This document shows positions 6,653 to 31,500 of a stretch of 40,871 nt of DNA, piece after piece (the first letter of the stretch is position 1; each line of letters opens with the position of its first letter). This DNA comes from a virus. Lineage: Duplodnaviria; Caudoviricetes. Made by a program: the position numbers and the translations under genes. Under the pieces are notes generated by a model. It worked only from the letters and a program-made list of their open reading frames with translations, ran no database searches and was not told the DNA's origin. The DNA lies in the IMG/VR virus record IMGVR_UViG_3300030376_005400, positions 1 through 40,871 of that record; one strand, written 5' to 3'.

Positions 6653-6678
6653 CCTAGTTATTAGATTACGCTGTCCCA
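6653..6678 (-). promoter_or_regulatory. Putative late promoter (TGGGACA-N7-CTAATA)
   Basis: TGGGACA GCGTAAT CTAATAACTAGG on the minus strand. Confidence 0.6.
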
Positions 6679-7334
6679 CGTCCTAAATGCTTTCCTATAA
6701 CGTTATCACCAAATTCAGAGTATTTAGGTATTTGACGCAGCCACCAATCAAAAGTAAACGTATCATCAACCTTTTCTACGTAATCAGGTACAAATGCGTA
6801 CTTACGCATTTGATTTGCTAGCGCTAACGCCATCACACGGTCATCATAAGGAGAGCCAGACATTTGACCCCTGTCATTTCGTGTATATGTCCTCAATTCA
6901 GCAATCGTGTTCTTGTCATACAGCTTTAACTCATAGTTTTTAAGAGCCATACCTAAATCATCAATCATTAACGGCTTAGATGTACGTGTAGTTTTCCACC
7001 CATATTCTTGAGTAACCCTTTGATCAACTTGATTCATTGTTCTTTTCCTAAACAAATTAGGATAACCAAGTTGCCTAAGTTGAGTAATAGTCGTAAGGCC
7101 GTGGTTGTTTGCCTCAACACAACACAAGGCATCGCTATACCATAACCCAATCTTCAAAACCTCATGCGCTAATTCATCTGGCGGTATGCGTCCATGCCAT
7201 ATCGCCACTTGCTCCCCTGTGCGCACATCCAAAACCTGTACACACGAATAATCGCCATGCCCTAAGCCCTCAGCAGTATCTACCCCTAAAACGTATCCGC
7301 TAAAGTTTTTTGGTTTTTCCCAAACAGTTAACAT
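6666..7334 (-). CDS. terL: Terminase large subunit, nuclease (RNase H-like) domain as a separate gene
   Basis: YVLGVDTAEG..DYS, VEANNHG, DDRVMALALA; GGAG 5 nt before ATG. Confidence 0.9.
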   Translation of the reverse strand: MLTVWEKPKNFSGYVLGVDTAEGLGHGDYSCVQVLDVRTGEQVAIWHGRIPPDELAHEVLKIGLWYSDALCCVEANNHGLTTITQLRQLGYPNLFRKRTMNQVDQRVTQEYGWKTTRTSKPLMIDDLGMALKNYELKLYDKNTIAELRTYTRNDRGQMSGSPYDDRVMALALANQMRKYAFVPDYVEKVDDTFTFDWWLRQIPKYSEFGDNVIGKHLGRGTA

Positions 7335-8215
7335 CTGAACTCCACAACTCTCGGATACGGCTCATGCAAATGGCCTTCTCGGCCAGCTCTAACATGGTGC
7401 TCAATAGATTCCAAAGCGTCAAGATCAAATACAGGGTTACCAGAGCGAACGAATGCCTCTTCAGGGGAAGTTGGGTATTCCTGTGCGAGTTGCCAAGGCA
7501 ACATAGCGTCTTTTTTACCTTCATACCATGAATCATCTCTATCCTCAGATGCAGACCAAGGAAAAAACATAGGATCAAAGTTGTTATTGCCAGTTACCGC
7601 ACCTGTCCACAAATTGTGGAAGAAATTACCCGAACCGTTTGCTGTAGAAAGTCCAATAATACGACCCCCCACATCAGCAACAGGCTCAATAGAGGCCCAA
7701 GCCTCCTCTGGGTTAGGTAAAAACGCCCATTCATCCACAACAATAAGTGTTGCAGACTCTCCACGAGCAGGATCAGAAGCGGAAGGCATACTAGTAATCT
7801 GCGAACCGTTAGAGAACCCCATCCTTTGCTGGTGCTCAACTTCCGATTTAGGACCACGTTCAACCATCCACTTTGGCAAATGCTTAAATCCATACTTAGT
7901 TTTCCTTAACAACAAGACCGCCTCACGTTCAGTACGTGAAAGGTCAATAATATTTTGGTCATCATGGAAATATGCCAACCAGAACTGATGAGCAGCTACT
8001 AACGTAGTCCAACCTATCTGCCTAGCTTTAAGTGTTAGCGAATATCTTTCATCTCGCCATCGGGTGAGAGCTTCTTTCTGAGCCTCACGTAATCCAAAAA
8101 GTATGCGACCATGAGCAGGGTGAGCAATACTCCAATAGTTTTGAAGAAAATAGTCCTCGCTCTTGACACAGTTCCTCCACTCGGCTTCTTGCCGAAGCTC
8201 CGTAATACGAGCCAC
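7328..8215 (-). CDS. terL: Terminase large subunit, ATPase domain
   Basis: LKARQIGWTT (Walker A region), LIVVDEWAF (Walker B), STANG coupling motif, QEYP..PEEAF. Confidence 0.9.
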   Translation of the reverse strand: MARITELRQEAEWRNCVKSEDYFLQNYWSIAHPAHGRILFGLREAQKEALTRWRDERYSLTLKARQIGWTTLVAAHQFWLAYFHDDQNIIDLSRTEREAVLLLRKTKYGFKHLPKWMVERGPKSEVEHQQRMGFSNGSQITSMPSASDPARGESATLIVVDEWAFLPNPEEAWASIEPVADVGGRIIGLSTANGSGNFFHNLWTGAVTGNNNFDPMFFPWSASEDRDDSWYEGKKDAMLPWQLAQEYPTSPEEAFVRSGNPVFDLDALESIEHHVRAGREGHLHEPYPRVVEFRC

Positions 8216-8769: not shown

Positions 8770-8850
8770 CTACCTTGTTAGCGTAATTGTCCCATTCGTG
8801 CTTTACAAGTAATCTAATAAAATACTGGGACACTTCGCACTAATAGGTAC
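8770..8850. promoter_or_regulatory. Divergent pair of GGGACA motifs
   Basis: Minus: TGGGACA ATTACG CTAACA (from 8794). Plus: TGGGACA CTTCGCA CTAATA (from 8826). Confidence 0.6.
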
Positions 8851-9202: not shown

Positions 9203-9293
9203 CAAAACCATGCTACAACAAAGTTGTAGTCAAAAGTACCTGAAGAATGAAGGTACTTTTGCCTTCCCAACAACGAAAGGAGATTCGGCGATG
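9203..9293 (+). promoter_or_regulatory. Early leader cassette A1 (double hairpin plus SD)
   Basis: CTACAAC-aaa-GTTGTAG; CAAAAGTACCT-gaagaatga-AGGTACTTTTG; homologous to 9705-9802. Confidence 0.7.
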
Positions 9294-9587
9294 AACGAAT
9301 CACTGCTAATCACACTCAAAACAATATGCAAGGAAATCCCACCTTGTTGGAAAGAATGGAAAGCTGGCTGGAAAGCCGATGCTTGGATTGACCTACGGTC
9401 TGAGGTCCACTACAACTTCTACCACTGGTGGTTATCAAAGCGAACCACTTCTCGGTTTGCTTGGTTCTTTAATGCGCTGTCCAGAGAAGATCTCTCTGGA
9501 TACACGGAACCAAGTCTTGAAGACTGCGTTACAGCTCTGGAGAGCTGTATTGAAGGCCGAGAATGGAGAAATGAGATGGGATACTGA
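9291..9587 (+). CDS. Trp-rich early hypothetical protein (98 aa)
   Basis: Start moved to ATG 9291 after AAAGGAG. Confidence 0.7.
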   Translation: MNESLLITLKTICKEIPPCWKEWKAGWKADAWIDLRSEVHYNFYHWWLSKRTTSRFAWFFNALSREDLSGYTEPSLEDCVTALESCIEGREWRNEMGY

Positions 9588-9595
9588 TCCCTTGG

Positions 9596-9637
9596 AAGGT
9601 GTGCATGGTGATAATATCACTGTGCGCACCTTTTTTT
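9596..9637 (+). terminator. Rho-independent terminator
   Basis: AAGGTGTGCATGGTGAT-aat-ATCACTGTGCGCACC followed by T7. Confidence 0.8.
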
Positions 9638-9704
9638 GTGTCCTGTGACCTGTATGCGTAGCACCTTGTAAAGGTGGAGAAAAGGGTCGCTAACAGGACG
9701 AGAA

Positions 9705-9802
9705 CAAAACTATGCTACTACGTTAAGTAGTAGTAAATTACCCCTTCTGTAGTTGAAGGGGATAATTTCCTCACACAACAACGACTGGGAGGTCGGCAAA
9801 TG
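9705..9802 (+). promoter_or_regulatory. Early leader cassette A2 (double hairpin plus GACTGGGAGGTC RBS)
   Basis: CTACTAC-gttaa-GTAGTAG; AAATTACCCCTTC-tgtagtt-GAAGGGG-a-TAATTT. Confidence 0.7.
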
Positions 9803-10183
9803 ACAACACAAATTACAATCAGCAAAGCTGAAGCAAAAGCAATCCTTGGATTGGCCTCAAAAATCAGCAGGGCAGAAGGCCTGAAGGAAGATGCACCTGC
9901 GGTTAAGCCGAAGGCTTCTAAGGCCAAGAGTTCTAAGGCCAAGTCAGCTAAGAAACCACGTGTTGAGGCTAAGCCTCGTGTAGTTTCTAAGTCGGCTAAA
10001 GCCCATGCTAAGGCTATTCTTAATCGTAAGATTAATGGCCACAAAAGCGCTTCAACGTTAGCGTTGAGTCGTGGTGAGAAAGAAGTAGCCATTGAGCATC
10101 TCCAGTCTGCGCTGGACTTATGTCCTTCAGAATGGAGTAGCGTGATGGATTCTATCCACCGAAGGCTAGTTAAGCTAGCTTAA
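9800..10183 (+). CDS. Lys/Ala-rich (histone H1-like) early protein
   Basis: PAVKPKASKAKSSKAKSAKKPRVEAKPRV; strong RBS. Confidence 0.75.
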   Translation: MTTQITISKAEAKAILGLASKISRAEGLKEDAPAVKPKASKAKSSKAKSAKKPRVEAKPRVVSKSAKAHAKAILNRKINGHKSASTLALSRGEKEVAIEHLQSALDLCPSEWSSVMDSIHRRLVKLA

Positions 10184-10187
10184 AGTT

Positions 10188-10235
10188 GGGGCTGATACGC
10201 TTGCATCATCATCGTGGTGTAGGCGTATCGGCTCT
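10188..10235 (+). promoter_or_regulatory. Long G-U-containing RNA hairpin (possible RNase III site or terminator)
   Basis: GGGGCTGATACGCTTGCATCA...TGGTGTAGGCGTATCGGCTCT, about 20 bp. Confidence 0.6.
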
Positions 10236-10251
10236 TCGGATTAATTTAGGT

Positions 10252-10310
10252 TATAGTTTATTAACTTGAATTAATGAAAGTTAATAAACATATAGATGAC
10301 TGGGAGGTCA
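10252..10310 (+). promoter_or_regulatory. Early leader cassette B1
   Basis: TATA-GTTTATTAACTT-gaattaatga-AAGTTAATAAAC-a-TATA then GATGACTGGGAGGTCA. Confidence 0.7.
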
Positions 10311-10314
10311 GAAC

Positions 10315-10755
10315 ATGGAAACAGTAAACCCACTAACAGGAGCGCCAGATTCATTCGGTTGGTCCGAAGAACCAGCAGTTCCTGCTGAAAATAAATTGCC
10401 TAGCTTCTACACGATCACAGATGATCCTGAGATGCGTGTTCGCTGGGCAGATTGGAAGAACCCAGCAGTTTTCTCTCCAGAGAAATACACGCTTGGCGAG
10501 TATGAGCTACTCCAAGCCATTGGCATGGACCCAAGGAGAACCTTGGACTATGACGATGCGTTTGAGATGGGCAGTATTGCCCTAAACATGGTCTTCTGTG
10601 AAGGTCAGGGAGTATGGGTAGAAGACGGCTTTCAGGTAACTGAAGAATATTGGGTTAATGAGTTCCGATACCTGTACGAAACTAGCGTGGATTCCGATTG
10701 GGAACATGACGGTTTTGAGTACGTTATATCCGAGGAAGATTTCCTCGGAGCTTAA
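10315..10755 (+). CDS. Highly acidic early protein (DNA-mimic candidate)
   Basis: 146 aa; about 32 D/E vs about 8 K/R by hand count; aromatic-rich. Confidence 0.7.
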   Translation: METVNPLTGAPDSFGWSEEPAVPAENKLPSFYTITDDPEMRVRWADWKNPAVFSPEKYTLGEYELLQAIGMDPRRTLDYDDAFEMGSIALNMVFCEGQGVWVEDGFQVTEEYWVNEFRYLYETSVDSDWEHDGFEYVISEEDFLGA

Positions 10756-10777
10756 TTAGACTGGGAGGTCTACACAC

Positions 10778-11137
10778 ATGTTTACTTTCACTGTAACCCT
10801 TGGGTTAGAAGATGATTTTGGTGGCGAATACAATGGCGATTGGATTGGACGGTACGTCCAGTCTAGTGAACACGCTAGGCGCTTTTTCAGCGTATTTACC
10901 ATTGCTAATGGTATGGGTATTGATACCGAAACCGACAAGCAAGAACCTGTCCTTGTGATACAAGGATCTTGTGAGTCTAGAGAGCTGTTAGACGACACAC
11001 ACACATACTTTCGGAGCGTTGCTGAAAGCATGCGCCAAAGAGGGTTTGGTTGGTTTGAGTCGGAGATCAATAGCTACGCTTACACGGACTACGGCCAAGA
11101 GGTTATGGAACATAACTGGGAAGCCGAGTTGATATAA
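10778..11137 (+). CDS. Putative SAM lyase (T3 SAMase-like)
   Basis: FFSVFTIANGMG...EPVLVI...VAESMRQ matches the FT-x-G..E..A..Q pattern; 119 aa; early position. Confidence 0.5.
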   Translation: MFTFTVTLGLEDDFGGEYNGDWIGRYVQSSEHARRFFSVFTIANGMGIDTETDKQEPVLVIQGSCESRELLDDTHTYFRSVAESMRQRGFGWFESEINSYAYTDYGQEVMEHNWEAELI

Positions 11138-11147
11138 ACATCTTAGT

Positions 11148-11178
11148 GGTTTACCCCTCTTTAGTGAGGGGATAAACC
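11148..11178 (+). promoter_or_regulatory. Bulged hairpin (CCCCT/AGGGG family)
   Basis: GGTTTA-CCCCTC-tttagt-GAGGGG-a-TAAACC. Confidence 0.65.
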
Positions 11179-11203
11179 TCTTAGCCAGATTGGAGAAAAA
11201 ATA

Positions 11204-11548
11204 ATGCTTAAATTTTACGAAAAAGAAACTACCTCCGAAGGAGAAGAAACAATGGTATCAAAGACCTTTGGTCCATTAAAGCAACACCCAAGCAGGGAGA
11301 TCCTGCGTATGGCTCTCTGCCGAGACATTGATGGACACCTTTACGGTGTCGTCATGGTCCATTGGGGCAACATAGACCCAGAGGAGTATGTCGTTTGGGC
11401 TGTTAGGGCTGACAAAGGGCATGAAGAGGAGGGCTTTCACACGGCTCATGGCTCATACGTGGTTGGCATTAATGAAGCCAACGCTGAGTTTAATCGTAGG
11501 TCCAGCAATTGGTCTTACATAAAAGGAAGGTGGGCTTTAGATGCCTAG
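11204..11548 (+). CDS. Early hypothetical protein
   Basis: YVVW...HGSY...ANAEFNRR motif; alternative start at 11252 with AAGGAG. Confidence 0.7.
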   Translation: MLKFYEKETTSEGEETMVSKTFGPLKQHPSREILRMALCRDIDGHLYGVVMVHWGNIDPEEYVVWAVRADKGHEEEGFHTAHGSYVVGINEANAEFNRRSSNWSYIKGRWALDA

Positions 11549-11825
11549 TGGAACTATTAACGGTGTAACCGTTGCCGTAGGACACGGCGACTTGATCGCA
11601 TTTCTTCCATGTTCCCATTGTGGGAAGGAAGAAACGGTTAAGGCCAGATACGAGGACGTGCAGAGATATCTGCGTGGTGCTCTTGTGCAAGAGGTGTGGC
11701 CAGAAGCCACCCCTGCTTACAGGGAGCAGATGATAGGGTTGCGTAATGGTGGAAACCATTACCATTGCGACACCTGTTGGAGTGATCTCTTTGGAGATGA
11801 CGATGACGAAGATGACAATTGGTAG
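11541..11825 (+). CDS. Zinc-binding early protein
   Basis: CSHC...GALVQEVWPEATPAYREQMIG...CDTCW; acidic tail. Confidence 0.75.
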   Translation: MPSGTINGVTVAVGHGDLIAFLPCSHCGKEETVKARYEDVQRYLRGALVQEVWPEATPAYREQMIGLRNGGNHYHCDTCWSDLFGDDDDEDDNW

Positions 11826-11840
11826 ACCATAGGAGGTCAA

Positions 11841-12053
11841 ATGAAAAACACTGAAAGAAACCGTTTACGGTATCGTAAGCTAAATGCACAGTTGGCTAAT
11901 GCCACCAAATTCAACAAATCAGGTGAACCTGAGAGAATGGTGGAAGCGCTTAATAGCGCATATAAGCTAGCTTCCACACCTACGGTGTGGCCACACGAAC
12001 AAGAACGTGTGTTGAAGTCGGCTAAAAAGCACGGTGCTATAGTCGGAGCTTAA
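11841..12053 (+). CDS. Early hypothetical protein
   Basis: 70 aa; AGGAGGTCA RBS. Confidence 0.7.
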   Translation: MKNTERNRLRYRKLNAQLANATKFNKSGEPERMVEALNSAYKLASTPTVWPHEQERVLKSAKKHGAIVGA

Positions 12054-12056
12054 CAG

Positions 12057-12123
12057 GTGGGGCCTCGTATGAGGCCCTACTACAGGGCGTACATGTATTC
12101 CCCCATGTGCGTCCTGTAGTGGG
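12057..12123 (+). promoter_or_regulatory. Two overlapping RNA hairpins
   Basis: GTGGGGCCTC-gtat-GAGGCCCTAC overlaps CTACTACAGGGCGTACATG-loop-CATGTGCGTCCTGTAGTGG. Confidence 0.6.
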
Positions 12124-12149
12124 TAAACCACTGAGAACAGGAGGTCGTC

Positions 12150-12662
12150 ATGTATATGACACTAGACATTTGGATTCCCCTAGTTTTAGGAGGGATCTCT
12201 TGCGCAATGTACATTGCGTGTATATTGCATTTCCGTGAACTTTGTGAAGTTCACGACACATATAAAGAGATGGTTGATAGGGCCGAGCAAGCTGAAGCTT
12301 TGCTTGAACACGAGGCTAGACGTGACGAGTATAATGGCTGGTCAAACAAGGAAACGTGGTCTTTAGCCCTGACCATAGACAACGACAAAGAGCTGTACGC
12401 TCATTTCATACGGCTAATCAGGGATTTCGCCACAGATTTTGAGCTGTCCTATCCCCTTAATGGGGAAGACACACGGCGTATGGGCCATTACATAAGTTAC
12501 CATTGGGGTAACTTGATGGAGGAGTGGTATGAAGAAAAGGACCACATGTACCTATTTGCCAAGATGACGATCGGTTCCGACTGGCGTGTAGATTGGTTTG
12601 AAATAGGCGAATGGGCTTCAGAGAAGCTCGCCGATTTTGACCCTCACAGGGAGACAGCATGA
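12150..12662 (+). CDS. YNGWxNxETW-family phage protein with N-terminal membrane anchor
   Basis: Hydrophobic IWIPLVLGGISCAMYIACIL; YNGWSNKETW...IDND..LY; RVDWFEI. Confidence 0.7.
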   Translation: MYMTLDIWIPLVLGGISCAMYIACILHFRELCEVHDTYKEMVDRAEQAEALLEHEARRDEYNGWSNKETWSLALTIDNDKELYAHFIRLIRDFATDFELSYPLNGEDTRRMGHYISYHWGNLMEEWYEEKDHMYLFAKMTIGSDWRVDWFEIGEWASEKLADFDPHRETA

Positions 12663-12931
12663 TAGATGAAAACTCTTACGAGCACCTAGAGTCCGAACAC
12701 CACAGGGCTAGGACGATCTTGGATAATCATGGGTTATCTGATTGGGTTGTTTTGCCCAACGAACGAGAGCTAGTTAGGCGTATAGACCCCAAGGATTATT
12801 ACGCAAATGAAGAATGTCCGAAGGACAAAGACAATGGCGATTTTATGTGCCAAGGGTGTGGTGAGTGGTTCGGCGAAACTCTTTCGTTTACAGGATATGT
12901 GTGCCACTGGTGTACAGGAGCGCTGACATAA
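12659..12931 (+). CDS. Zn-ribbon hypothetical protein
   Basis: CQGC...CHWC. Confidence 0.7.
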   Translation: MIDENSYEHLESEHHRARTILDNHGLSDWVVLPNERELVRRIDPKDYYANEECPKDKDNGDFMCQGCGEWFGETLSFTGYVCHWCTGALT

Positions 12932-13201
12932 ATGGTTTACAGGGAGTTATGGACACCTATTGAAACCCTTAAGGTTGAAGGCAAGCGTTACCCTTTGGAA
13001 CGTGGTCGTCTTTTCAAGGTAAAGGGAGAACGAGGGGTCTACAGGGTCATGGACATGTTTGCGCATAAGGAAGACCCTAATCGGATTGAGATTCACGCTT
13101 GGTGGCGTGATAGAGAACTGTTCACAGGCGGTAAGGCTATGTGGAGGTACGTCAGGCCTAATGACGTTAAACGAATTTTAGGCAAATTAGAAAAAGTATA
13201 A
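12932..13201 (+). CDS. Small SH3-like beta-barrel hypothetical protein
   Basis: LERGRLFKVKGERGVYRV ... RYVRPNDV. Confidence 0.6.
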   Translation: MVYRELWTPIETLKVEGKRYPLERGRLFKVKGERGVYRVMDMFAHKEDPNRIEIHAWWRDRELFTGGKAMWRYVRPNDVKRILGKLEKV

Positions 13202-13254
13202 TAATTATTACTGAATGTAATGAAGTAATAATTATATATAGAACTGGGAGGTTC
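13197..13254 (+). promoter_or_regulatory. Early leader cassette B2
   Basis: TATA-ATAATTATTACT-gaatgtaatga-AGTAATAATTAT-a-TATA then GAACTGGGAGGTTC; TATAAT at the 5' foot. Confidence 0.7.
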
Positions 13255-13256
13255 AA

Positions 13257-13883
13257 ATGAGTAATGAAATTGAAGTAAAGCTTGTGTTAGATCAAGCGCA
13301 ATTGAATGGTCCTACTGCGTTGCAGTTAGTGGAGATGTTCAAGCAAATAGCTGGCAATGAGGCGTTTGGTAACGCTGTTGAACAGGTGTTTCACGATAGG
13401 TCCAGCTTTGTAGCTGATCTCAAAGGCATAATGAATGTGCAAGATACCGATGACCTTCGGTACGACATCATCAACAGCTACGACTTGGAAAATGCTATAG
13501 ACGCACAAGTTGAAAACTGGATAGGTAACAGCGATTTGTATTATCTGCCTGACACTGTTAGCGACTTGCAGAGTTCGTTTGAAGAGTATGACTTGATGCA
13601 GATGCAAGATGACCTTAACCGTGATGAGGAAGCCATTGACAACCTCAAGAACGAGTTTCAGGAGCAAGACGGCAAATGGGATAGCTTCGTAGGCGACATT
13701 CGAGATCGTTTGGACACGATTGAAGACAAGCTAAGCATAGATACGAGCGAAGAAGGTTACCGTACAATAGACGGTCTTCAGGAACGTGTACTTGAACTTG
13801 AAAAGAATGTTGCTAACCTAATGGCGATCAACGAACGTCAAATGCACATTATCCATAACATACAAGGAGTGGAGCTAACATGA
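13257..13883 (+). CDS. Acidic coiled-coil protein
   Basis: 208 aa; heptad pattern, D/E-rich. Confidence 0.75.
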   Translation: MSNEIEVKLVLDQAQLNGPTALQLVEMFKQIAGNEAFGNAVEQVFHDRSSFVADLKGIMNVQDTDDLRYDIINSYDLENAIDAQVENWIGNSDLYYLPDTVSDLQSSFEEYDLMQMQDDLNRDEEAIDNLKNEFQEQDGKWDSFVGDIRDRLDTIEDKLSIDTSEEGYRTIDGLQERVLELEKNVANLMAINERQMHIIHNIQGVELT

Positions 13884-14059
13884 GTGGAGGATCATACATA
13901 CTTACTTTCGTATTGACGGAAGAAGCACCATCAAGCAAAGCGTATGAGAACGCAGTCTCAGATTTCGTGTCACATGCAGGTGACATGATTGTTGAGATAA
14001 GCGAGGGTCCAATAGAACCCGACTTTATAGACAACGACCAGAGGAGGTCACAATTATGA
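13880..14059 (+). CDS. Hypothetical protein (59 aa)
   Basis: Not in the ORF track: MSGGSYILTFVLTEEAPSSK...; GGAG SD; ATGA overlaps at both ends. Confidence 0.7.
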   Translation: MSGGSYILTFVLTEEAPSSKAYENAVSDFVSHAGDMIVEISEGPIEPDFIDNDQRRSQL

Positions 14060-15060
14060 CATGGGCTAAAGATTTCATGTTTAGTACAGGAGATGACGAC
14101 ACGCCAACAGCGTCCGTCATGCTCAAAGCACAACAGGTAGGGGCAGATTTTGATGTCACCTATTTACCAGCAGGTTTCCTGAAACAGGCTGTGTCTTGGC
14201 AACAACCAGAGTTCACGGTTCCTGTCTACGACTCAGGCGAGTATGAAGGTAAACCTAAACAAATGTACATTGTCCGAGATGACACTAACGAGGTAGTGGG
14301 TCAACACTCATCTAAGTACCCGAAACGTGATGCGTATCATCACAACTTTCAGGTCTTGGAAAATGCGTTCCCTAATTCCTGTGAGAATGTCCAAATTTGG
14401 GATAATGGAGGCTTATGCCTCGTTACACAACGCATAGGTGATGAGATTGAATTACCTATGGGAGATGAAGTTGTCCAATACGTTTACAGCGTTATGTCCT
14501 TGAATGGAACCAAACGCACAATGACTATACCCAAAGCAAGCAGGGTTTCCTGCACAAATGCGCTGGGTTTAACGTTGGCTATCATCTCGTCAAAGGCTAC
14601 ACGTAACCATGACGCTAGGATTTCGTTCCAAGCTGAAGTGTTTGAGAAATCAGAGATTCAGTTAGATGCGTTGGTGAGAATGGCCAAAGTCTTTACTAGT
14701 AAAAACTTCACAGATCAGGAGTTCACACGCTTAGTGGACAACCTGTTAGAAGTTCCTGATAAAGATGCTAGCACTAGAGCTGTCAACACGTACCAACGTA
14801 CTCGTAACAGCATGTTCACTACGTGGCGGAAAGAGTGCCAAGAGTACAACGACCAAAACATGTGGCTTGCATACAACGCAGTCCAAGGTGCGGAACAGCA
14901 TCGTGTAAACGCCAACTTTAAAGCCGAGGACGACAAAGGCTATGAAGCTGGCCAAAAGAAGTCCATCTTCAACGCTCTTGAAGGTGGTACACCTCTAGCT
15001 GAATCTTGTGAGAAATATCTCCGAGCAGAGCTAGATGCGCCAGAAAAGGCGCTAGTATAG
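14056..15060 (+). CDS. DUF932/DUF945-like phage/plasmid protein
   Basis: IVRDDTNEVVG..SSKY, RVSCTNAL, WLAYNAV..EQH motifs. Confidence 0.8.
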   Translation: MTWAKDFMFSTGDDDTPTASVMLKAQQVGADFDVTYLPAGFLKQAVSWQQPEFTVPVYDSGEYEGKPKQMYIVRDDTNEVVGQHSSKYPKRDAYHHNFQVLENAFPNSCENVQIWDNGGLCLVTQRIGDEIELPMGDEVVQYVYSVMSLNGTKRTMTIPKASRVSCTNALGLTLAIISSKATRNHDARISFQAEVFEKSEIQLDALVRMAKVFTSKNFTDQEFTRLVDNLLEVPDKDASTRAVNTYQRTRNSMFTTWRKECQEYNDQNMWLAYNAVQGAEQHRVNANFKAEDDKGYEAGQKKSIFNALEGGTPLAESCEKYLRAELDAPEKALV

Positions 15061-15062
15061 GT

Positions 15063-15153
15063 GGAGGTCTAGGTGGGACTGCCGTCCTTGACACGCAAGT
15101 GTAGTGAATGACCTCCCTCTCTGATGGCAGTTCCACCTCTCTAACGAGAGGGA
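15063..15153 (+). ncRNA. Candidate structured regulatory RNA with anti-RBS loop
   Basis: 16-bp stem 15071-15086/15123-15138 with two G-U pairs; inner ACAC-GCAA-GTGT GNRA hairpin; unpaired TGACCTCCCTCTC. Confidence 0.6.
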
Positions 15154-15156
15154 ATT

Positions 15157-15519
15157 ATGATAATAATTAACACAGACGGTGCGTATGATGTCGTGCCGTA
15201 TAACGATGGCGTTCTCGTAAGGACCCATCACACAGAGTGTCTGCGAAAAATGATGACACGTATACATGGCAAGAAATGGGTATATGCCAATCTTGCCAAC
15301 CACATTAAACACACACCCAAGACAAGGTGGAAATGGCGACTGACCCTCCCTACCCACGATTGGAATGGGTATCTAGGCAAATGCACTCGTGCTATGGACT
15401 ATGACTTTTTCTACGACAGAATGATCACAGAGGAAGACATAACTACCACGAAATTGCATGGAATAGCAGGTGTTTACACACACATGAAGAAAGGGTGGTC
15501 CCATGTTGAACAGGTATGA
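15157..15519 (+). CDS. Hypothetical phage protein
   Basis: 120 aa; M.I.T.G...V....VLVR...MDY..F pattern. Confidence 0.7.
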   Translation: MIIINTDGAYDVVPYNDGVLVRTHHTECLRKMMTRIHGKKWVYANLANHIKHTPKTRWKWRLTLPTHDWNGYLGKCTRAMDYDFFYDRMITEEDITTTKLHGIAGVYTHMKKGWSHVEQV

Positions 15520-22518: not shown

Positions 22519-22540
22519 ATCTATAAGTCTCCTTGTCCCT
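22519..22540 (-). promoter_or_regulatory. Putative late promoter (AGGGACA-N6-CTTATA)
   Basis: Motif immediately upstream of the endolysin ATG. Confidence 0.5.
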
Positions 22541-25500
22541 AGTTGTTGTTGTGAATAGCGTCCAGCAACTGTAAGCGGTTAGCATCAGTTGTTTTCTGCC
22601 TGTTTTCGTAATATTGCCCTGTTTGAGCTTGCTCTATTTCATAAGGGCTAAGTGTTCTTAGACCTATTCCAAAGAACCAACTCATTATATTAGAGAAATG
22701 CCTTTCTTGGTATTTCTCCTCAGTAGGAGCTATCCTACGCAAATCGCTAATAGGAGGCGTTACTTGTGTTAAGAAGTGTAGCCACTTAGATTTTATAGCA
22801 TAACCACCGTTAGGTAAAGGCTGTGCAACACCTTGAGATTCTAACAGTGGCATTAACAACGGAACTTTTTCCAACCAGAAAGGCACATGTTCATACCTGT
22901 CTTTAAAAGAATAGTCTTTCCAAATGTTCCTATTCATCATCAACTCCAAAGGAGCTTTAGCTAATGGAGTCATCATTGACGCTCCAGAGCGCAATGTGGC
23001 TCCTACTGCGCCCAATACGTCGCCTTGAGCTAATTCACTTACAGGCTCATTAAGCATGTCAAAAGTAGAACGAACAGGAAGATCTGGCATAAAGTAAACA
23101 GGGTTTCCTTGCACATCCATACTTGCAGGCAATCGCACACCGCCCTGCCTTAACATCCAATCAGGAACAGGGCCAACATTTCTATCTTCCTTATCAGATA
23201 AGGCACGCATCATTATCGCATATCTGTGGAACTTAGCTGGCTGTTGAAAGAACTGCCCAATAGTCAAAGGAATAGCGTGACGTGACCACGTATAAAACGG
23301 AATCAATCTTTTAATTTTTCGTTCAGTTTGGCTTAAATCAGAGTAATCAAAATGCCATTTAACAATGTTGTCCCAAGCGTCATCCACAGTTCCGCCAGAG
23401 TTTAACGTGTGCAACCCTAAAGAACCCCTCACTACGTCTTCTACAGTAGCGTTAGCTCCTCTAAATTTCTTAAGAACAATGAACTGAGAACTGAAAGGCA
23501 TAGCTGCTCGTACGTTCCAATCTCTTCCCCTCCATCGTTTAACAGTCTGTATTTCCCTGTTCCCAATTTTTATTGCTCGTTTAGAATCAGGAATAAATTC
23601 TTGCCCATAAAATCCAGATCCTTCTTTCCCTATTAAACCACCGTCCATCATTGCACGAACTGCGTTAATGTCTTTAGGGTTAGTCTTCTTGCGTGCTGCA
23701 TCAGCTAATTGCTGTGCGTCACGCAATACACGCCTACGCAATTTTGGTTTAGAAGCTCCAAATATAGCTGCGTCAGCTATCTCGTCTTGGTACTTTAAGT
23801 ACTTATAGGCGTTTAAAAAATTGCTATAAGCGCTTACAGGGACATCAGCTAAATAGTTCATCCATAAAGCTCCGTAAAAGTTTCTAGCCAAGAAGCCTGC
23901 TTTTAAAATCATGTAACCTTTTGTAACGTTATGAACGTTGTCGTAATACTGAACAAGGGTTTTAGGGGGTTTACCTGTAGTTTCTAACCCAAGTTTTGTT
24001 GTTCCCATTATTGTTTCAGTTATTCCTTCTCTACTAGAATTAGCTAAACCAACTGGGTTCTTAGCAGCATCATGTGCATAGATTAATGATGTGAAAAGAC
24101 GTTCTTTCGTCTTTTCACTCATTTCTGAGTAGTTAGGTACAAATAACTGATCTACATCTGGTTTAGGATTATTTAAAGTCTTAAGAACATAGTCAATTTC
24201 ATCTAAGTCATTAATTCCTATTTGCTTTAAAGAAGCTGAAAAATCTAAAAGATTTTCCAAGCTTCCTATCGCTAACAAATCATCCTCAGCAAAACCATCT
24301 ATCATATTTTTAAGTTTGTTTCTGGCATCAACATGAAGCTGTATGCGTTGAGTAACATAATCTAGCGCCTGTTTCTCTTGAAGGATACGCAACTCCACAT
24401 CCTCTAACTCTTTGGCTAAGCCTGTTGCTTCAATTTCATCATCAGGCATCCACCTTCTAAGCTTTTCAACGTCTTTAGACAATTGCGTATCATAAGGCCT
24501 AGAAGTTCTTATCTTATGCAAATCCCCTAAAGCTTTGAGTCTGTCCATGTAGTGAGCTTGCAAATTTTCCATATTGTACTTAATCTGCTTAGATTCGTTA
24601 ATGTTTTCAAAAACGTCTTTCTTTAACAGACTGTAGTTTTCTCGGCCAATATCGTAAGCAGCTTGATCTTTAATATCAAGCGCTTTTTGCAACCCTTTTC
24701 TTTCTACTATTTTCCCTTTAGGTCTTCCCCCTTTAAGGAATAAAGGAAACATGTTTCCCCTAGCGGAAGCTTGCAAAGCTTCATAAGCAGCTTTGTCAGC
24801 AACACTTGCGCCTTTAAAATCAAGAGTTGGATTATTCAAAAAGTTTCTTACTTGCTCATCGTAACGTTTAATAAGTGATTCTCGTGTAGGTATTTTACTT
24901 GCAACAATTTCGTCAATAAGCTCCTGTTCGTCAGCGTTCCACCATTTCTTCCATTTTTCATCAAGTACAGGATTGTCGTTAAAAGCATAAATCTTTTGAT
25001 CTGTGTAAAGTTCATTAAACCCTGCGACTACATGATGCGTGTCAGAAGGCATAGGTACTTCTGCAGGCCTATCCTTAATTGTCATTGATTCCATGTCTGC
25101 AAATGGTTCTCTCCTAGAAGGAACATTTGGATCACGTTCTAACACTTTAAATTTATTAACATACGTTTCCGCATCAACTTCACGCAAAGTACCCTCAGCT
25201 ATTAACTGCTTTACAGTGTCGTCACCACCCCTGAACGTATCTGCTAAACCTTTAGCCGTATAAACCCTTGTAACTAAACCAGTACGCATTTGCTCATTTG
25301 ACGCTGCCAAGAAATGATGCACGTCTATAGCAGCATTGATTTGCTGTCTCGCTCTATGGGCAGCCCACTCAGGATCAACAACAATCGCATTAGGGTTAGT
25401 AATTATGTAATCCATTGTAAATGGGGCTTGAACAGTGCCTTTACGAGCTTGCTCTACTGGGTCCGCCATAGCGTCCCAAGTCTCATTCTCAAGGTCAGAA

Positions 25501-28500
25501 GCCTGTCTAGTGCTCATTCTTCTATTAATGCCTTCTACGTCAAGCGCTATAGTTTCTTGTTGAGAGACAATCCAAGGGTCATCTATTACATCATCTTGAT
25601 CACCGTATCTACGTGCAGCTTTTTGCATATTCCCTTCAGTAGAACGGCTGTATTGAGCTTGATCCCTGTAACCCCCAGACCTAAGTTTAGCCCTCACGTC
25701 TCTAACGTTTGAATTAAAGCTTTGATCGTAGGTGGCTTGACCGTGCATTCTAGGTTGAGAAACACCTATATACCCATCATTAGCTAAAGACATTTTCCAA
25801 TCGTCTATCATTCTCTTAGCTAAAAGGCTGTCAGCGCCCTCAACTTTAGTAAACAATTGCATTACCCTATTTACGTGAACATAAGATTGCATCTTAGCTT
25901 TAAGAATTTCATCCTTAAAATGAGGATTAGATGGGTTTGTCGCATACGCATACTCACCCAAATCGTCCATAAAGTTATTAAACCGATCACCGTCCCTAGT
26001 CAAATATCCATTAACTGCGTCTATTTGCCTGTACTTGTTATCCCTCCAAGAAAGGAACTCAAGAACTTCTTGGAAAGTTCCACCTTCCTTAAAATAATTT
26101 GCCGTAATAGGATCAGTTTTAATAGCAGCTCTTATAGAGCGAACACGAGCCATCGTCCTTACAGAAGTAATCGTATCTCTTCTGGTTGCTGCAGTCATAG
26201 TATCAACTACGCTAGGAACGCTACTTCCTTCAGAAACCCTGTAGATGTCGTTTAGGATTATTTTACCTTCACCTGTTTTAGGGGAAATACCTGCAGGCGT
26301 AACCTGAACAACTTCAGTAGCAGGTTGTGGCATTCCCAAATCTGCGTCTTGTAACTCTAAACTGCCTTTGTATTTGTTAGCGAGCAACAATTCCATTTCT
26401 TTAGCTTGATTAGACGTTAAAGCGTCTTTAGTAATTACTCGTATTATTTCATCCATGACAAGCGGATCTTGCCTGCCCAGAATGTCTACCATTCTTTCGC
26501 CTAAAGAAATCATGTCTTGTGGCATAAGTTTGGTAGGCCCTTCCCAGCCAACCAAACGAAGTATTTGATCAGTAAACTGACTTAAATCATCACCTTTAAG
26601 ACCAGCAGGGTTAGCAGGACTAAGCTCAGTCCAGAATCTATACAAACCTTCTTCATAGCCATTGAAATGGATAAGAGATGTGTCACCCATAGTTCTAGCT
26701 TGCGCATCTAGCTTAAGCAAAGCTGCTGTAATTTCTTCAGGTTCTTTAACTTGAAGTACAGGATCAACACCATAAAACCTTATTTCTCCCATGTTTGTAT
26801 CAACAGCTAGACCTTGATACTTAACCCCTTCCCTGTAAGCGTAAGGCGCTAACGTCATCCTAGACTTACCCCCAAATGGGCTTTGCTGATGGCCCATGAC
26901 ATCAGAAAGGCCCAAAGGTTTAGCAATCGTGTCATCGTAGCCACCTGAATTATCCAAAAGTCTAAGAAGACCAGATTTGCCTTCTGTTGCCCACGTATCT
27001 AAAACAACTTTGGTTGGTAAAACGTTAGAAGCAAACTGCTTCAGCATTTCGTCTTCGTCTGTCAAATAAGGTAACCCAAAATATTCAGATAAATATTTTG
27101 TTCTAACTTCCAAGAAATGCGCCAACTCATCTAATGCCTTTGCATCTAAATTAGGAACAGCGTTCTCTAAATAATTTCTCCAACCTCCCACAGAGTTACG
27201 CACATGCAACATTCGTTCTACTTGCTGATTCATTGAATCAGGCATAAACCCACTAGGTAATTTTCTAGCAATATCTTCAGGGATATCATTAGGAAAGTAC
27301 AAACTTTCATCGTATGCGCCATACATTTTAGGACCTAAACCTAATTCCATAACTTCTGTAATGTCGTAATTAACGCCTACAACTTCCCTTGGCTGTCCAC
27401 TAGCTCTAGTTGGAGTAAGCGGATCTCCTTGCCTTGCAAGATCATCTACACCCTCAAAGACTTTATTTAGCTCTTCTGCTAAATCATCCTTGACTCGCAT
27501 TATCTGAGCTTCCATATCTTTAGGCTTTAACTCTTCTAGTTTCGCAATCTTTCTTTGCGCACGCCTAGAAGCAAACCCAGCAGTCCGCCATTGCTGGTAT
27601 TGAGTGCCATATATTCTTTGACCCTTACCAAATCCTTTAGTCTCAAGCCATTCTTCAGTTAAAGGATTCTTACGTTCCCTAATTTCTACTTGGCTAGGTT
27701 TCCTAGCTTTGCGCTCTACAACAGTTCCATCTAATTGCGTATAACTTACCCTATCTTGTGGAGTAATTTCCTTTACACCTTTAGGTGCTTTAGGGCGTTT
27801 AGGTTCAACAGTAGGGCGAGGCCTAGGTGGCTCTAACGGCACAGGAGAATCCACAGGCACAAAGCTAACGTTATCCATTACGCTTGCGTTAATAGAATCC
27901 ACCATCGCATCAAATTCCATAGGGTGCGTATCTACGACATCAGCAGCATAATGATACAACCCAGTTTTCTTAGTTAATTGTTCCGCTAAATCATTTGCTG
28001 CCTGTTGACGAATTTGATCATCCGTCATATCCCAAGCAGCATTAGTAGCCACAGTAGATTTACCACCGTTGCCTTCCCAGTTTCTCATTTCAATGTCGTA
28101 TTTTTCCCAAGCTCTACTATCTTGTTTGTAAGCGGTTAATTCTTTGTTGTATTGAATCATTTCAGCTTCATACACTTGTTGTGCTTTAACATCAGCATCT
28201 GCAAGAGATTCAGGCGTGCTTTTGCTAACTATAATATTGTTTTGATCGTCTATAGAGACAGTAGTTGGTTGTTTTTCAACCAACTGCAGTCTTCCGTCAA
28301 CATATTCTAAAGCTTTATAGGGTTGTCCATCAGGAAGATGTTTTTCAGTTCCTTTAGAGGTAAAGAAAGCATCATCCATTCCATACCTAACAGTCGTAAA
28401 TCTACCAAACCTTTCAGCTTGATTACCCCAAGCATCAAGAGCGCTAGGTCTACCAGTTACAGGGTTTAGCTCTCCCCACAAAATACCGTAATTCTTAGCA

Positions 28501-31500
28501 GCACCTGTTCCATTAACTGACCAGTTCCCCAACAAAACATCAGCTATAAAATCATTGGACATTTTAAGAACTTGTGGTTCAACTTTTACTCCCCAGAAAC
28601 CCATTGCCATTTGAGTTAAATCTTGATTTGGCGGTTGATACTGAGGATCAAACATAGATCTTTGAGAATCGGCTGTACCTAATGTATCTTCATAAACAGG
28701 TCTAGGGTAACCTCCCTGTTGCGTTGCTCTAGGATCAACAGGCGCACGACCACGACTAGCTCTTTGAGAACCAGCTTCACCGCCAACAGTATACGGCTTT
28801 ATACTTTCATTAATTTTCATAACAGAATAAGCAGTACCACGTTGAACTCTGGCCTCCATACGAGGCACAGCAACACCCAAAATTTCATAAACCTTTTGAG
28901 CAGCTAACTGCTCATCTCTTTCACGGAAATTCTTTTTCTTTCCTTGCGGAGTTGCATTGTCATGCTGCGAAAACGATCTAACGTAATACGTTTCACCGTC
29001 AGCGCCTTTGTAGAAACCATCCAAAAGATCAAAGTCTTTTGGAGCAACAGGGAAAGCGTCACTCCCCTGAAAACCAATAACTTCTGGCTCTATTCTCATC
29101 TCTGGATTTAGCGTATCTAAATCAATATCAAACTTCTTAAGAGGAACAGGGCTTTGCACGCCTTGTTCCATCGCTTCACCAAACTTCTTAGCGTAACGCT
29201 CTACCCTAGCAATCTCTTCCATCGTCACAGGAACACCATCAAGCTCAACTTTCATATATTCTTCTAGCTTTGCAAAAGGATTCCTTGACAATTCTTCTTG
29301 AACTGAAACTAAACGCTTGTCTACTGCGTCCCTGTATTTGCCTATTTTTAACGCTAAATCAGAAGAACTCTCAACAGTCCCTAAAGATTGTTTCCCCATC
29401 AACAAATAGTATTGCCTTATAGCGTTGCCTAATTCTCTGTTAAGTTCAGGATTGGCAATAACCTTTGCTTGCTCATCTACACCATTATGCAAATGCGCTT
29501 TAATTAAGTTTCGCCATTGCTCAACGTTCTCTACGGTGGGAACACCAAACTGGGCAATAGGGCCTTGGTCTTCTAAATTGCTAAACTTTTTAGCTATTTG
29601 ATCTAACTCATCCATCAAAGATGAAATTTCCATATCCATTGATTGCAATGTCTTAAACATTGACGCAGGCAAATTAGCAGGATTTTCTTTGACGATAGCA
29701 TCGTGATGACTTATTTGGAACCATTGCCCCATACCTTCGTCAAACCTGAGCATTTCAGTATCAAAATATTGGCTTATTTCTCTGAAAGTCATTTCTGACC
29801 CATCAGATAAAACAACCGTCTTAGGTCCAACCATTTGAGAAATAGTTCCATCAGGCATAACCCTGTAAGAAACGCCACCGTCATTAAGGACCTTAACGGC
29901 CTGATGAGGTGTCATAAAGGCTCTAACCTTTGCAGGGGATGGTTCAGGACCCATTCTAGCAAGCACATCTTCATCAGGTCTTGCAGCCCCCATAGGAGTT
30001 ACTAACTCGTCTTCTCCTGTCATTTGGCCACGTTCTTCAAAGTTTCTCTTCAGGTAATCCTGAATCTCTTCACCTTCTCTTGTCCCTTGATGCCGTTTAG
30101 CGTTAGAAGCTTCCCACCTTTGCCTTTGATGCTTAATAGTGTTTTCAATCTCTAGCGTTTGAACGTCTGTTAGCTCTTCAGCAGTAATTTTTTGTTGCGG
30201 AGCAACATCATCTGTAACCGCAGAAACTTGTTCCAAAGCTTGCTCTCGTTCAAGAGGCGTAACGTCTTTTCCTGTTAGCGGATCACGGAAAGCAGGCTGA
30301 TCTAAAGCTTGCGCTCTTTGAGGTGGAGCATCAGGGAACGTCATCCGTGCTATATCGTCTTCCCACCTTCGCAAAGTTAATTCTATAACTTTGCGATCTA
30401 CCATTTGACCAATTCCTTGAGAACCAGCTATTCCCTGCACTTCTTGATAACCAAGTTTATTAAAGGAAGTTATCGCAGACATTTCAGCAGGAAGATCTTG
30501 TTCAACTTGCCTCATAATAACTGGCAACAGTTCTTCTGAGGTCATGTGATGCCAATTAGGCATTTGCAAAAGTTCAGGCATAAATTCATGCGCCTTATGC
30601 GCATCTAAACCTTTAGTAATCTCAAGAAGTTTATTCACTTCAGTCGAAACACGTACTTTTGCTTGCAAATAGCTTTCGTACATGCTTGCAACATTAGGAA
30701 TGTTTCCAGCTTCGTCAGCGAACTCTTCCCAATTTATGCTACGTATAAACATTTCTAATTCACGTTTAAGGTCTTGACGTATCGCCCTTAACGCAGGGTC
30801 AGTAATCTGTGACGGATCAACTTCCGCATCTATACCTTTAATTACTCGTATGATGTCGTCTTTAGTTTCGTTCCAAATTTCTCTACCAACGCTGTCATTC
30901 CAAATAGTGTTTAACGTAGATAGCTCCAAATCTACATCGTCACCAAAGACGCTCATATTTGTCATCCTATGAGCTTCATAATTCCTATTTGCCTGTATTA
31001 CCTCAGCAATAGCTTGAGTGTATTTATCGGCAGCATCTCTGGCTCGTTCTACGTTTCCAAACCTTTCAATAAGGTGCTGTTCTATTTTTGCTCTAGTTTG
31101 GACACCGTTGCTTAATGACTCGTACAGATAATAATAAACGTTATCCGTTATATCATCTCCACCAATCATTAACCTTTGGAGCACTTCTTGAAGTTCTTGG
31201 ATTTCCACATTCGCTTCTATCGCTTTTTGGAACTGAGGAAATTCTTCAATTGATATTTCTCCAGCTTTAAATTTTTCAATGTCAAACATGAACCGTTCTT
31301 GTTCGTCCATAACTTGCATCAACTTGTTGAACAGTTCGTCTGTTTTTTCAACAGACTCTGCGTACATTTGCTCACGTCTATTAAGCAATTGCTCACGATC
31401 CAATGCACGAGACAATTCTGTCTCGTAATCAGCAAGCAACTTAGCGTGTTGGTTTTCTAAATTTGTAATAGTTTCATTAATTAAACGTTGCTGAGCTACT

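Follow-up and report, generated by a model that had tools for sequence, protein, structure and literature searches.

We analyzed a virus record of 40,871 bases (IMGVR_UViG_3300030376_005400; this whole stretch is the window), in which a predicted RNA hairpin lies behind a block of small genes and exposes a loop complementary to the ribosome-binding sites (RBSs) of those genes. The minus strand of the window carries the structural genes (portal, capsid, terminase, tail, amidase and a 3,923-aa protein). The plus strand carries a block of small open reading frames (ORFs) of unknown function (9800-15060), followed by the exonuclease, helicase, primase, RusA and sigma-like genes, and it is from this gene layout in the window that the class called early below is assigned. 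The hairpin element and its immediate surroundings are as follows.

14056-15060, plus strand: DUF932 gene (334 aa), conserved directly upstream of the hairpin element
15071-15138, plus strand: RNA hairpin predicted by folding, in which a 16-bp stem (15071-86/15123-38) closes a loop region of 36 nt
15091-15102, plus strand: inner ACAC-GCAA-GUGU hairpin, predicted and not conserved
15109-15122, plus strand: open anti-Shine-Dalgarno (anti-SD) tract UGACCUCCCUCUCU, with a CCUCC core kept family-wide and lineage-specific 5' bases
15136-15151, plus strand: RBS hairpin of ORF 15157-15519 (CCTCTC/GAGAGG), which overlaps the long stem at its 3' end

The stem with its coordinates, the inner GCAA hairpin (as a predicted structure) and the open pyrimidine tract had been described in an earlier reading of the letters alone (the original prediction), and all were recovered in the window. 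The closing stem includes two G.U among its 16 pairs. Folding of the 68-nt element gives -30.6 kcal/mol (z -4.24), which none of 200 shuffles equalled; for 106 nt including the flanks, z is only -0.84. The predicted unpaired probability of positions 15109-22 is 0.55-0.99. The Rfam search proposed with the original prediction found no family for the element: at the gathering threshold there were no matches in the window and none on the element in 11 loci of relatives (numbered with L below), and the closest signal was a chance match (E=3.3) adjoining the element. The reversed 7-mer in the loop has one copy in 40.9 kb, which by itself is not beyond chance; it is conservation and co-variation, rather than this single copy, that place the element beyond chance.

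Conservation was followed through scans with DUF932, taking the best 80 of 112 viral matches and the best 80 of 270 metagenome matches; 163 sequences (loci and window) were matched and gave 107 non-redundant DUF932 3' flanks. A stem of at least 8 pairs around ACCTCC near the stop codon was found in 35 of the 107 flanks, nearly all at 36% protein identity or above, and the element is present in 31/47 tree rows at 35.5% identity or above. Within the close clade, all 15 anchored positions are paired in six of the seven sequences, while the seventh has a 1-nt bulge (11/15 ungapped); double-sided (compensatory) stem changes occur at six columns in the anchored count, and GACCTCCCTC is invariant. 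RNAalifold on the MAFFT alignment missed the stem, the arms being out of register in that alignment. Six relatives gave z-scores of -2.9 to -5.5, and in 33/33 open-loop elements the plus strand folds lower, in windows that had been picked on the plus strand. Thus the stem and its CCUCC loop are kept in relatives, and the element is a real, conserved and uncatalogued predicted RNA structure on the plus strand. A sponge encoded on the minus strand was also considered and rejected on the G.U asymmetry, which favours the plus strand.

Not every part of the original prediction survived this comparison. The inner hairpin is not a conserved component, its sequence differing among relatives (GAAA loop in L092, other sequences elsewhere). 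Both GGAGGTC at 15063 and the CCTCTC/GAGAGG hairpin at 15136-51 are present in the window as described. The proposed pairing of the loop with GGAGGTC in a cis pseudoknot or self-decoy is contradicted by the occurrence of that sequence in only 2/7 close-clade sequences, and by a 1-nt linker that, from known pseudoknot geometry, is too short to span a 16-bp helix. Likewise, pairing with the RBS of the next gene is not conserved: this RBS varies while the loop stays unchanged, and in close relatives the RBS hairpin before ORF 15157-15519 is retained with altered sequence. An exact 16-mer scan returned 10 viral loci, of which three are family members and seven have no family protein match.

Directly 3' of the anti-SD stem, a conserved GCAG..GTGCG.CTGC..CGCAC motif was seen in 28 loci, redundant ones counted (L110:7700, L206:8268, L231:8003 and L233:6939 among others). 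Judged from its letters, the motif possibly forms an H-type pseudoknot that would mark the 3' part of the RNA.

The RBSs that the loop is predicted to pair with, referred to here as tagged for the C that follows GGAGGT at most of them, all lie 5' of the element on the same strand.

9782-9795, plus strand: predicted target, RBS hairpin CGAC-tgggag-GTCG of ORF 9800-10183
10297-10310, plus strand: predicted target, RBS hairpin TGAC-tgggag-GTCA of ORF 10315-10755 (9-nt match)
10758-10771, plus strand: predicted target, RBS hairpin AGAC-tgggag-GTCT of ORF 10778-11137
11825-11838, plus strand: predicted target, RBS hairpin GACC-atagga-GGTC of ORF 11841-12053
12137-12146, plus strand: predicted target, GGAGGTC RBS of ORF 12150-12662, with a local stem of just 2 bp
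13241-13254, plus strand: weaker predicted target, RBS hairpin GAAC-tgggag-GTTC of ORF 13257-13883, T replacing C
14036-14049, plus strand: predicted target, RBS hairpin GACC-agagga-GGTC of the DUF932 gene

As the original prediction stated, the loop is antisense to the early RBS motif: contiguous Watson-Crick runs reach 9 nt at 10303, 8 nt at 9788, 10764, 11832 and 14043, and 7 nt at 12140 and 13247. What it overlooked is that the tag C doubles as part of a cis hairpin arm at the RBS. Six of the seven tagged RBSs are small hairpins with the Shine-Dalgarno sequence (SD) in the loop, and their outer pairs vary between sites of one genome (arms CGAC/GTCG, TGAC/GTCA, AGAC/GTCT, GAAC/GTTC and GACC/GGTC). 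At all seven, the tag stands 4-9 nt before the start codon, which is SD spacing. Across relatives, a stem of at least 3 bp surrounds 45 of 85 early GGAGGT sites (shuffled mean 11.4, maximum 22 in 1000 shuffles) and 12 of 32 downstream ones. When 42 initiation regions of the window were ranked by duplex energy with the loop, the top five were early GGAGGTC genes. The predicted duplex energies of the seven tagged leaders (-15.6 to -21.7 kcal/mol, with the cost of pairing in a closed loop left out) exceed the local leader structure (-4.4 to -6.0), so loop pairing could open the RBS hairpins. RNAcofold gave zero for the pairing between loop and RBS, which is not representable there. Downstream of the element, the three GGAGGT RBSs in the window carry A rather than C at the tag position, in agreement with the original prediction, though the RBS of the primase gene (18738) has an 8-nt run with the loop in a different register.

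Other repeated structures stand between the early genes. AT-rich inverted repeats lie just before two tagged early RBSs, at 10253-10292 and 13198-13237 (10267, 13212); they have variable arms and a conserved TGAA..AATGAA centre, several occur in locus L003, and no sigma-70-like site was called at the two window copies. Locus L002 has repeated CCCTC-ATTT-ATGAGGG hairpins in their place. Long intergenic hairpins are found at 9594-9634, 9707-9768, 10190-10232, 11140-11190 and 12055-12125, and are possible processing sites or terminators.

If the loop pairs with early RBSs, the two should change together among relatives. The base after early GGAGGT is the complement of the loop base at 22/31 sites in clade A, 11/20 in B, 5/12 in C, 6/12 in D, 0/17 in E and 1/1 in F; the downstream equivalents are 2/14 in A, 8/9 in B, 0/1 in C, 1/7 in D and 0/2 in E (pooled early versus downstream, p=0.16). 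The true assignment of loops to clades is the best of 120 permutations, or the best of 20 without F, and locus L110 has perfect loop matches of 13, 11 and 10 nt. A held-out test used an exonuclease scan (best 80 of 125 matches). In L242 and L249, which have a GTAC loop, 4/5 early RBSs match in each; a new GCAAC loop in L206 matches 4/13 early RBSs; and the GAAAC loop of L239 and L243 matches 2/11 and 2/10. In the sister loci L231 and L233, the loop base and the RBS base switch together at 2-3 sites each.

Ten lineages, comprising 26 loci chosen as representatives by the analyst, were then compared. The claim that loop and early RBS co-vary stands for seven of them, in which the loop bases beside the core match non-canonical bases of their own early RBSs, and fails for lineages E, G217 and G230. 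Permutation gave p=5.5e-5 over the ten lineages and p=0.011 over five new ones, values that are optimistic, the lineages being analyst-defined and non-independent (D with E; five in one clade). By hand sums, RBSs with at least three extra pairs number 32/185 among early and 2/89 among downstream sites, and swapped loops give almost no three-pair extensions. Taken together, these comparisons point to a co-variation of loop and RBS that is partial but significant. Of the conditions named with the original prediction as refuting it, those open to computation (a loop that is not conserved or does not co-vary, or a known Rfam family) were not borne out.

We propose, with a probability of roughly 0.6, that initiation at the tagged early RBSs is blocked by pairing with an RNA, either an antisense RNA or the early transcript's own 3' end. 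The RNA would be the 3' part of the early transcript or be cut from it, and its stem would keep open a loop complementary to the tagged RBSs of the phage's own early genes. Pairing would start between the CCUCC core and the GGAG loop of an RBS hairpin and zip through the 3' arm of that hairpin (7-13 bp), so that the SD is masked from the 30S subunit and several early messages could be blocked at once. Because every predicted target precedes the element on the same strand, a delay would be built in: the RNA would accumulate after its targets and give delayed negative feedback on the early class. Precedents for anti-SD pairing are described in the cited accounts of icaR (PMC3868564) and c4 (PMC12197685).

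A number of results weigh against this proposal. A terminator scan found none at the element. In telling early genes from the others, a generic anti-SD control performs no worse than the loop (p about 0.001 in each case), and the class selectivity is therefore in part a matter of SD strength. In the sister clade (L103/105/106/136/189/190), the RBS hairpins are retained without the element in the DNA examined, and no forward ACCTCCC occurs in a 24-kb, 61%-complete record of that clade; hence the RBS hairpins are under selection of their own, and the RNA is an added, losable layer. As for co-variation, the three non-matching lineages (3/10) match nothing beyond the core, none of the early RBSs of L101, L021, L032 and L129 gains three extra pairs with the loop of its own locus, and clade B downstream RBSs match as well as early ones. 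In addition to the optimism of the p-values, the first statistic was chosen post hoc, and near-duplicate genomes inflate the pooled counts.

The original prediction also placed the early-to-middle transition at the element, and this boundary is uncertain. The palindrome TACTnAGTA, found at 8847, 16181 and 16219 before the terminase small subunit and exonuclease genes, is upstream of the exonuclease gene in 66/70 loci and 1.1 kb beyond the element. This palindrome is a better candidate for the transcription-class boundary than the element, and may serve the middle and late genes as a promoter or an operator.

Four other explanations were considered. The divergence of tags with matched loops, which a pure timer would not need, could reflect exclusion of superinfecting relatives: a phage already resident would use its RNA to silence the early genes of a newcomer that shares its tag, and tags would diverge to escape. 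The c4 specificities do differ between P1 and P7, as reported in the cited text (PMC12197685). Nevertheless, this explanation is unlikely: a scan of 45 ORFs named neither an integrase nor a repressor, the RNA would strike the phage's own genes too, and tag drift with compensation accounts for the divergence equally well. It is improbable that the RNA imitates the 3' tail of 16S rRNA in a general way and damps every message with a strong SD, the host's included, with the early match following from strong SDs. Such a mimic would fit the facts that CCUCC alone is invariant, that three lineages lack a specific match and that the generic control performs equally well, but the loop departs from the canonical tail toward the RBS base of each lineage, and swapped loops score almost no three-pair extensions.

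The overlap of the long stem with the next gene's RBS hairpin raises another alternative, in which the stem acts in cis to process, stabilize or couple the DUF932 transcript and the gene after it, the RBS hairpins are read by a protein (either a nuclease like RegB or a repressor like CsrA), and the loop is secondary. The excess of early RBS stems over the shuffled mean, the variation of outer pairs within a genome and the persistence of RBS hairpins without the element all agree with this, and RegB is reported to be able to cut unpaired GGA with a constrained fourth G (PMC3014915). We nonetheless give it little credence, as it leaves the invariant loop and its co-variation unexplained, and no RegB or CsrA family match was found in Pfam at E 0.01 among 29 proteins. 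Finally, a DNA site for a phage protein, with the loop a reversed copy and both following protein specificity in place of RNA pairing, would predict the same co-variation and has a parallel in the asymmetric repeated DNA sites of actinophages (stoperators, per PMC3203893), yet is very improbable given the SD spacing of the tags from start codons and the location of the reversed copy in the open loop of a G.U-rich plus-strand stem.

The proposed pairing of an RNA with tagged early RBSs has partial counterparts. One is the SAS motif, described in the cited texts for cluster K mycobacteriophages and cluster EF Microbacterium phages as SD-containing tags with self-complementary ends before non-structural genes (PMC3203893, PMC7302621, PMC11373665, PMC12699233); its role was reported as unknown in PMC3203893, and its function is still open in the text of PMC12699233 and PMC7302621. 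The seven tags of the window likewise contain an SD and sit shortly ahead of the start codons of non-structural genes. The cluster K system also has the ESAS, an upstream 17-bp inverted repeat with a SigA-like promoter; in the window, AT-rich inverted repeats precede the tagged genes at 10267 and 13212, and no sigma-70-like site was called at either. Unlike the SAS, they are of GAC-N-GGAG-GTC type instead of the published 13-bp consensus, shorter, lineage-variable and co-varying with a loop; no sequence kinship was seen, and none was tested. The resemblance is one of analogy, not homology. One reversed SAS site is reported in four K1 phages (PMC3203893), and late transcription is reported to begin in the gene 92-93 interval of Adephagia (PMC11373665). 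We found that the single reversed SAS of Adephagia lies in the loop of a long, conserved stem (z -6.7) between genes 92 and 93.

L172:33661-33714 (about 58.66-58.71 kb): Adephagia reversed-SAS stem

This region has blastn matches in 131 phage records. Among six divergent ones, the K1 loop is intact in three and altered in two, and the sixth is without it. The stem is absent from the lowest-energy fold of Peanam, which keeps the K1 loop; the match without the loop is that of SirPhilip, and in DarthP the loop has departed from a SAS that is itself unchanged. No reversed SAS was found in the right parts of TM4 and Pixie, nor in the whole of AnnaSerena.

We tentatively suggest, as a possibility that we hold to be considerably short of even, a two-part RNA addressing scheme, in which tagged hairpin RBSs on one gene class and one anti-tag RNA silencing that class form a code that diverges by lineage. 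The scheme would have arisen separately in the podovirus family of the window and in cluster K1, where the reversed SAS in the leader of the late transcript would shut off the SAS genes. If true, it would explain a motif unexplained since 2011 and make SAS function directly testable in a cultured mycobacteriophage with a laboratory host. A lytic phage would then switch off a whole gene class by one short RNA without a protein, an RNA counterpart of T4 RegB, and the natural tag/anti-tag series (GAC, GTAC, GAAAC, GCAAC and TAAC loops) would provide ready-made specificity tests.

Other systems share features with the window element, and among them c4, icaR and RegB are the nearest whose mechanism has been tested. 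The c4 RNA of P1/P7 is also a phage RNA with complementary loops, a target in its own message and, as here in 7/10 lineages by prediction, lineage-specific pairing (PMC12197685, cited text). In contrast, c4 controls an antirepressor message of temperate phages, whereas here one loop faces the SDs of 6-7 distinct genes, none of 45 ORFs was named as an antirepressor, repressor or integrase, and there is no Rfam match. In the icaR 3' untranslated region of Staphylococcus aureus, a C-rich motif is reported to pair with the SD and block initiation (PMC3868564); icaR is one chromosomal gene, unlike the many genes, closing stem and co-varying tag found here. T4 RegB is described as inactivating early messages class-wide via GGAG in the SD (PMC3014915), as is proposed here for the RNA, but RegB is a protein nuclease, with no such family match in the window. 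The element has no Rfam match, which sets it apart from several chromosomal RNAs. RsaE, cuckoo/CcsR and 6C RNA expose C/U-rich open anti-SD loops to several targets, these being host genes with canonical SDs. In the open literature we found no description of a phage RNA acting against a tagged RBS class; subscription papers, supplements of the SAS papers, figures and large RNA catalogues were outside this scope.

The early genes had been described as anti-defence genes, a label that nothing in the window supports. None of the 14 ORFs scanned in 9210-15060 was so named: no function was named except DUF932 and a weak DUF7249 match, with a defence library outside the scan. The predicted DUF932 model (pLDDT 74.5) has no match in PDB at E 0.001, and the DUF932 literature names no function at title level. 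An Atlas structure search with ORF 15157 returned only matches below 0.9. On the minus strand, the terminase large subunit is split over two adjoining ORFs (222 and 295 aa; 6666-8215), and the 3,923-aa protein (22539-34310) has no PHROG or Pfam match.

As to the host, a contig search gave as its sole match one 10-kb contig of a Flavobacteriaceae metagenome-assembled genome at 28% identity. The best matches of the endolysin are Streptomyces and Thermobifida phages (25-32%), and a WhiB-like pattern occurs only in three distant DUF932 loci. An actinobacterial host is a weak guess.

Catalogued RNAs were encountered in relatives. No tmRNA was found in the window. Rfam matches to tmRNA of 82-95 nt (60-70 bits) lie at L027:5138-5220, L110:4445-4526 and L033:2714-2808; these short matches keep the tRNA-like domain and have no message part. 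ARAGORN called a full-length tmRNA at L017:3011-3334, and a Pistol ribozyme (51.4 bits) lies at L027:4873-4934, in the early region of that relative.
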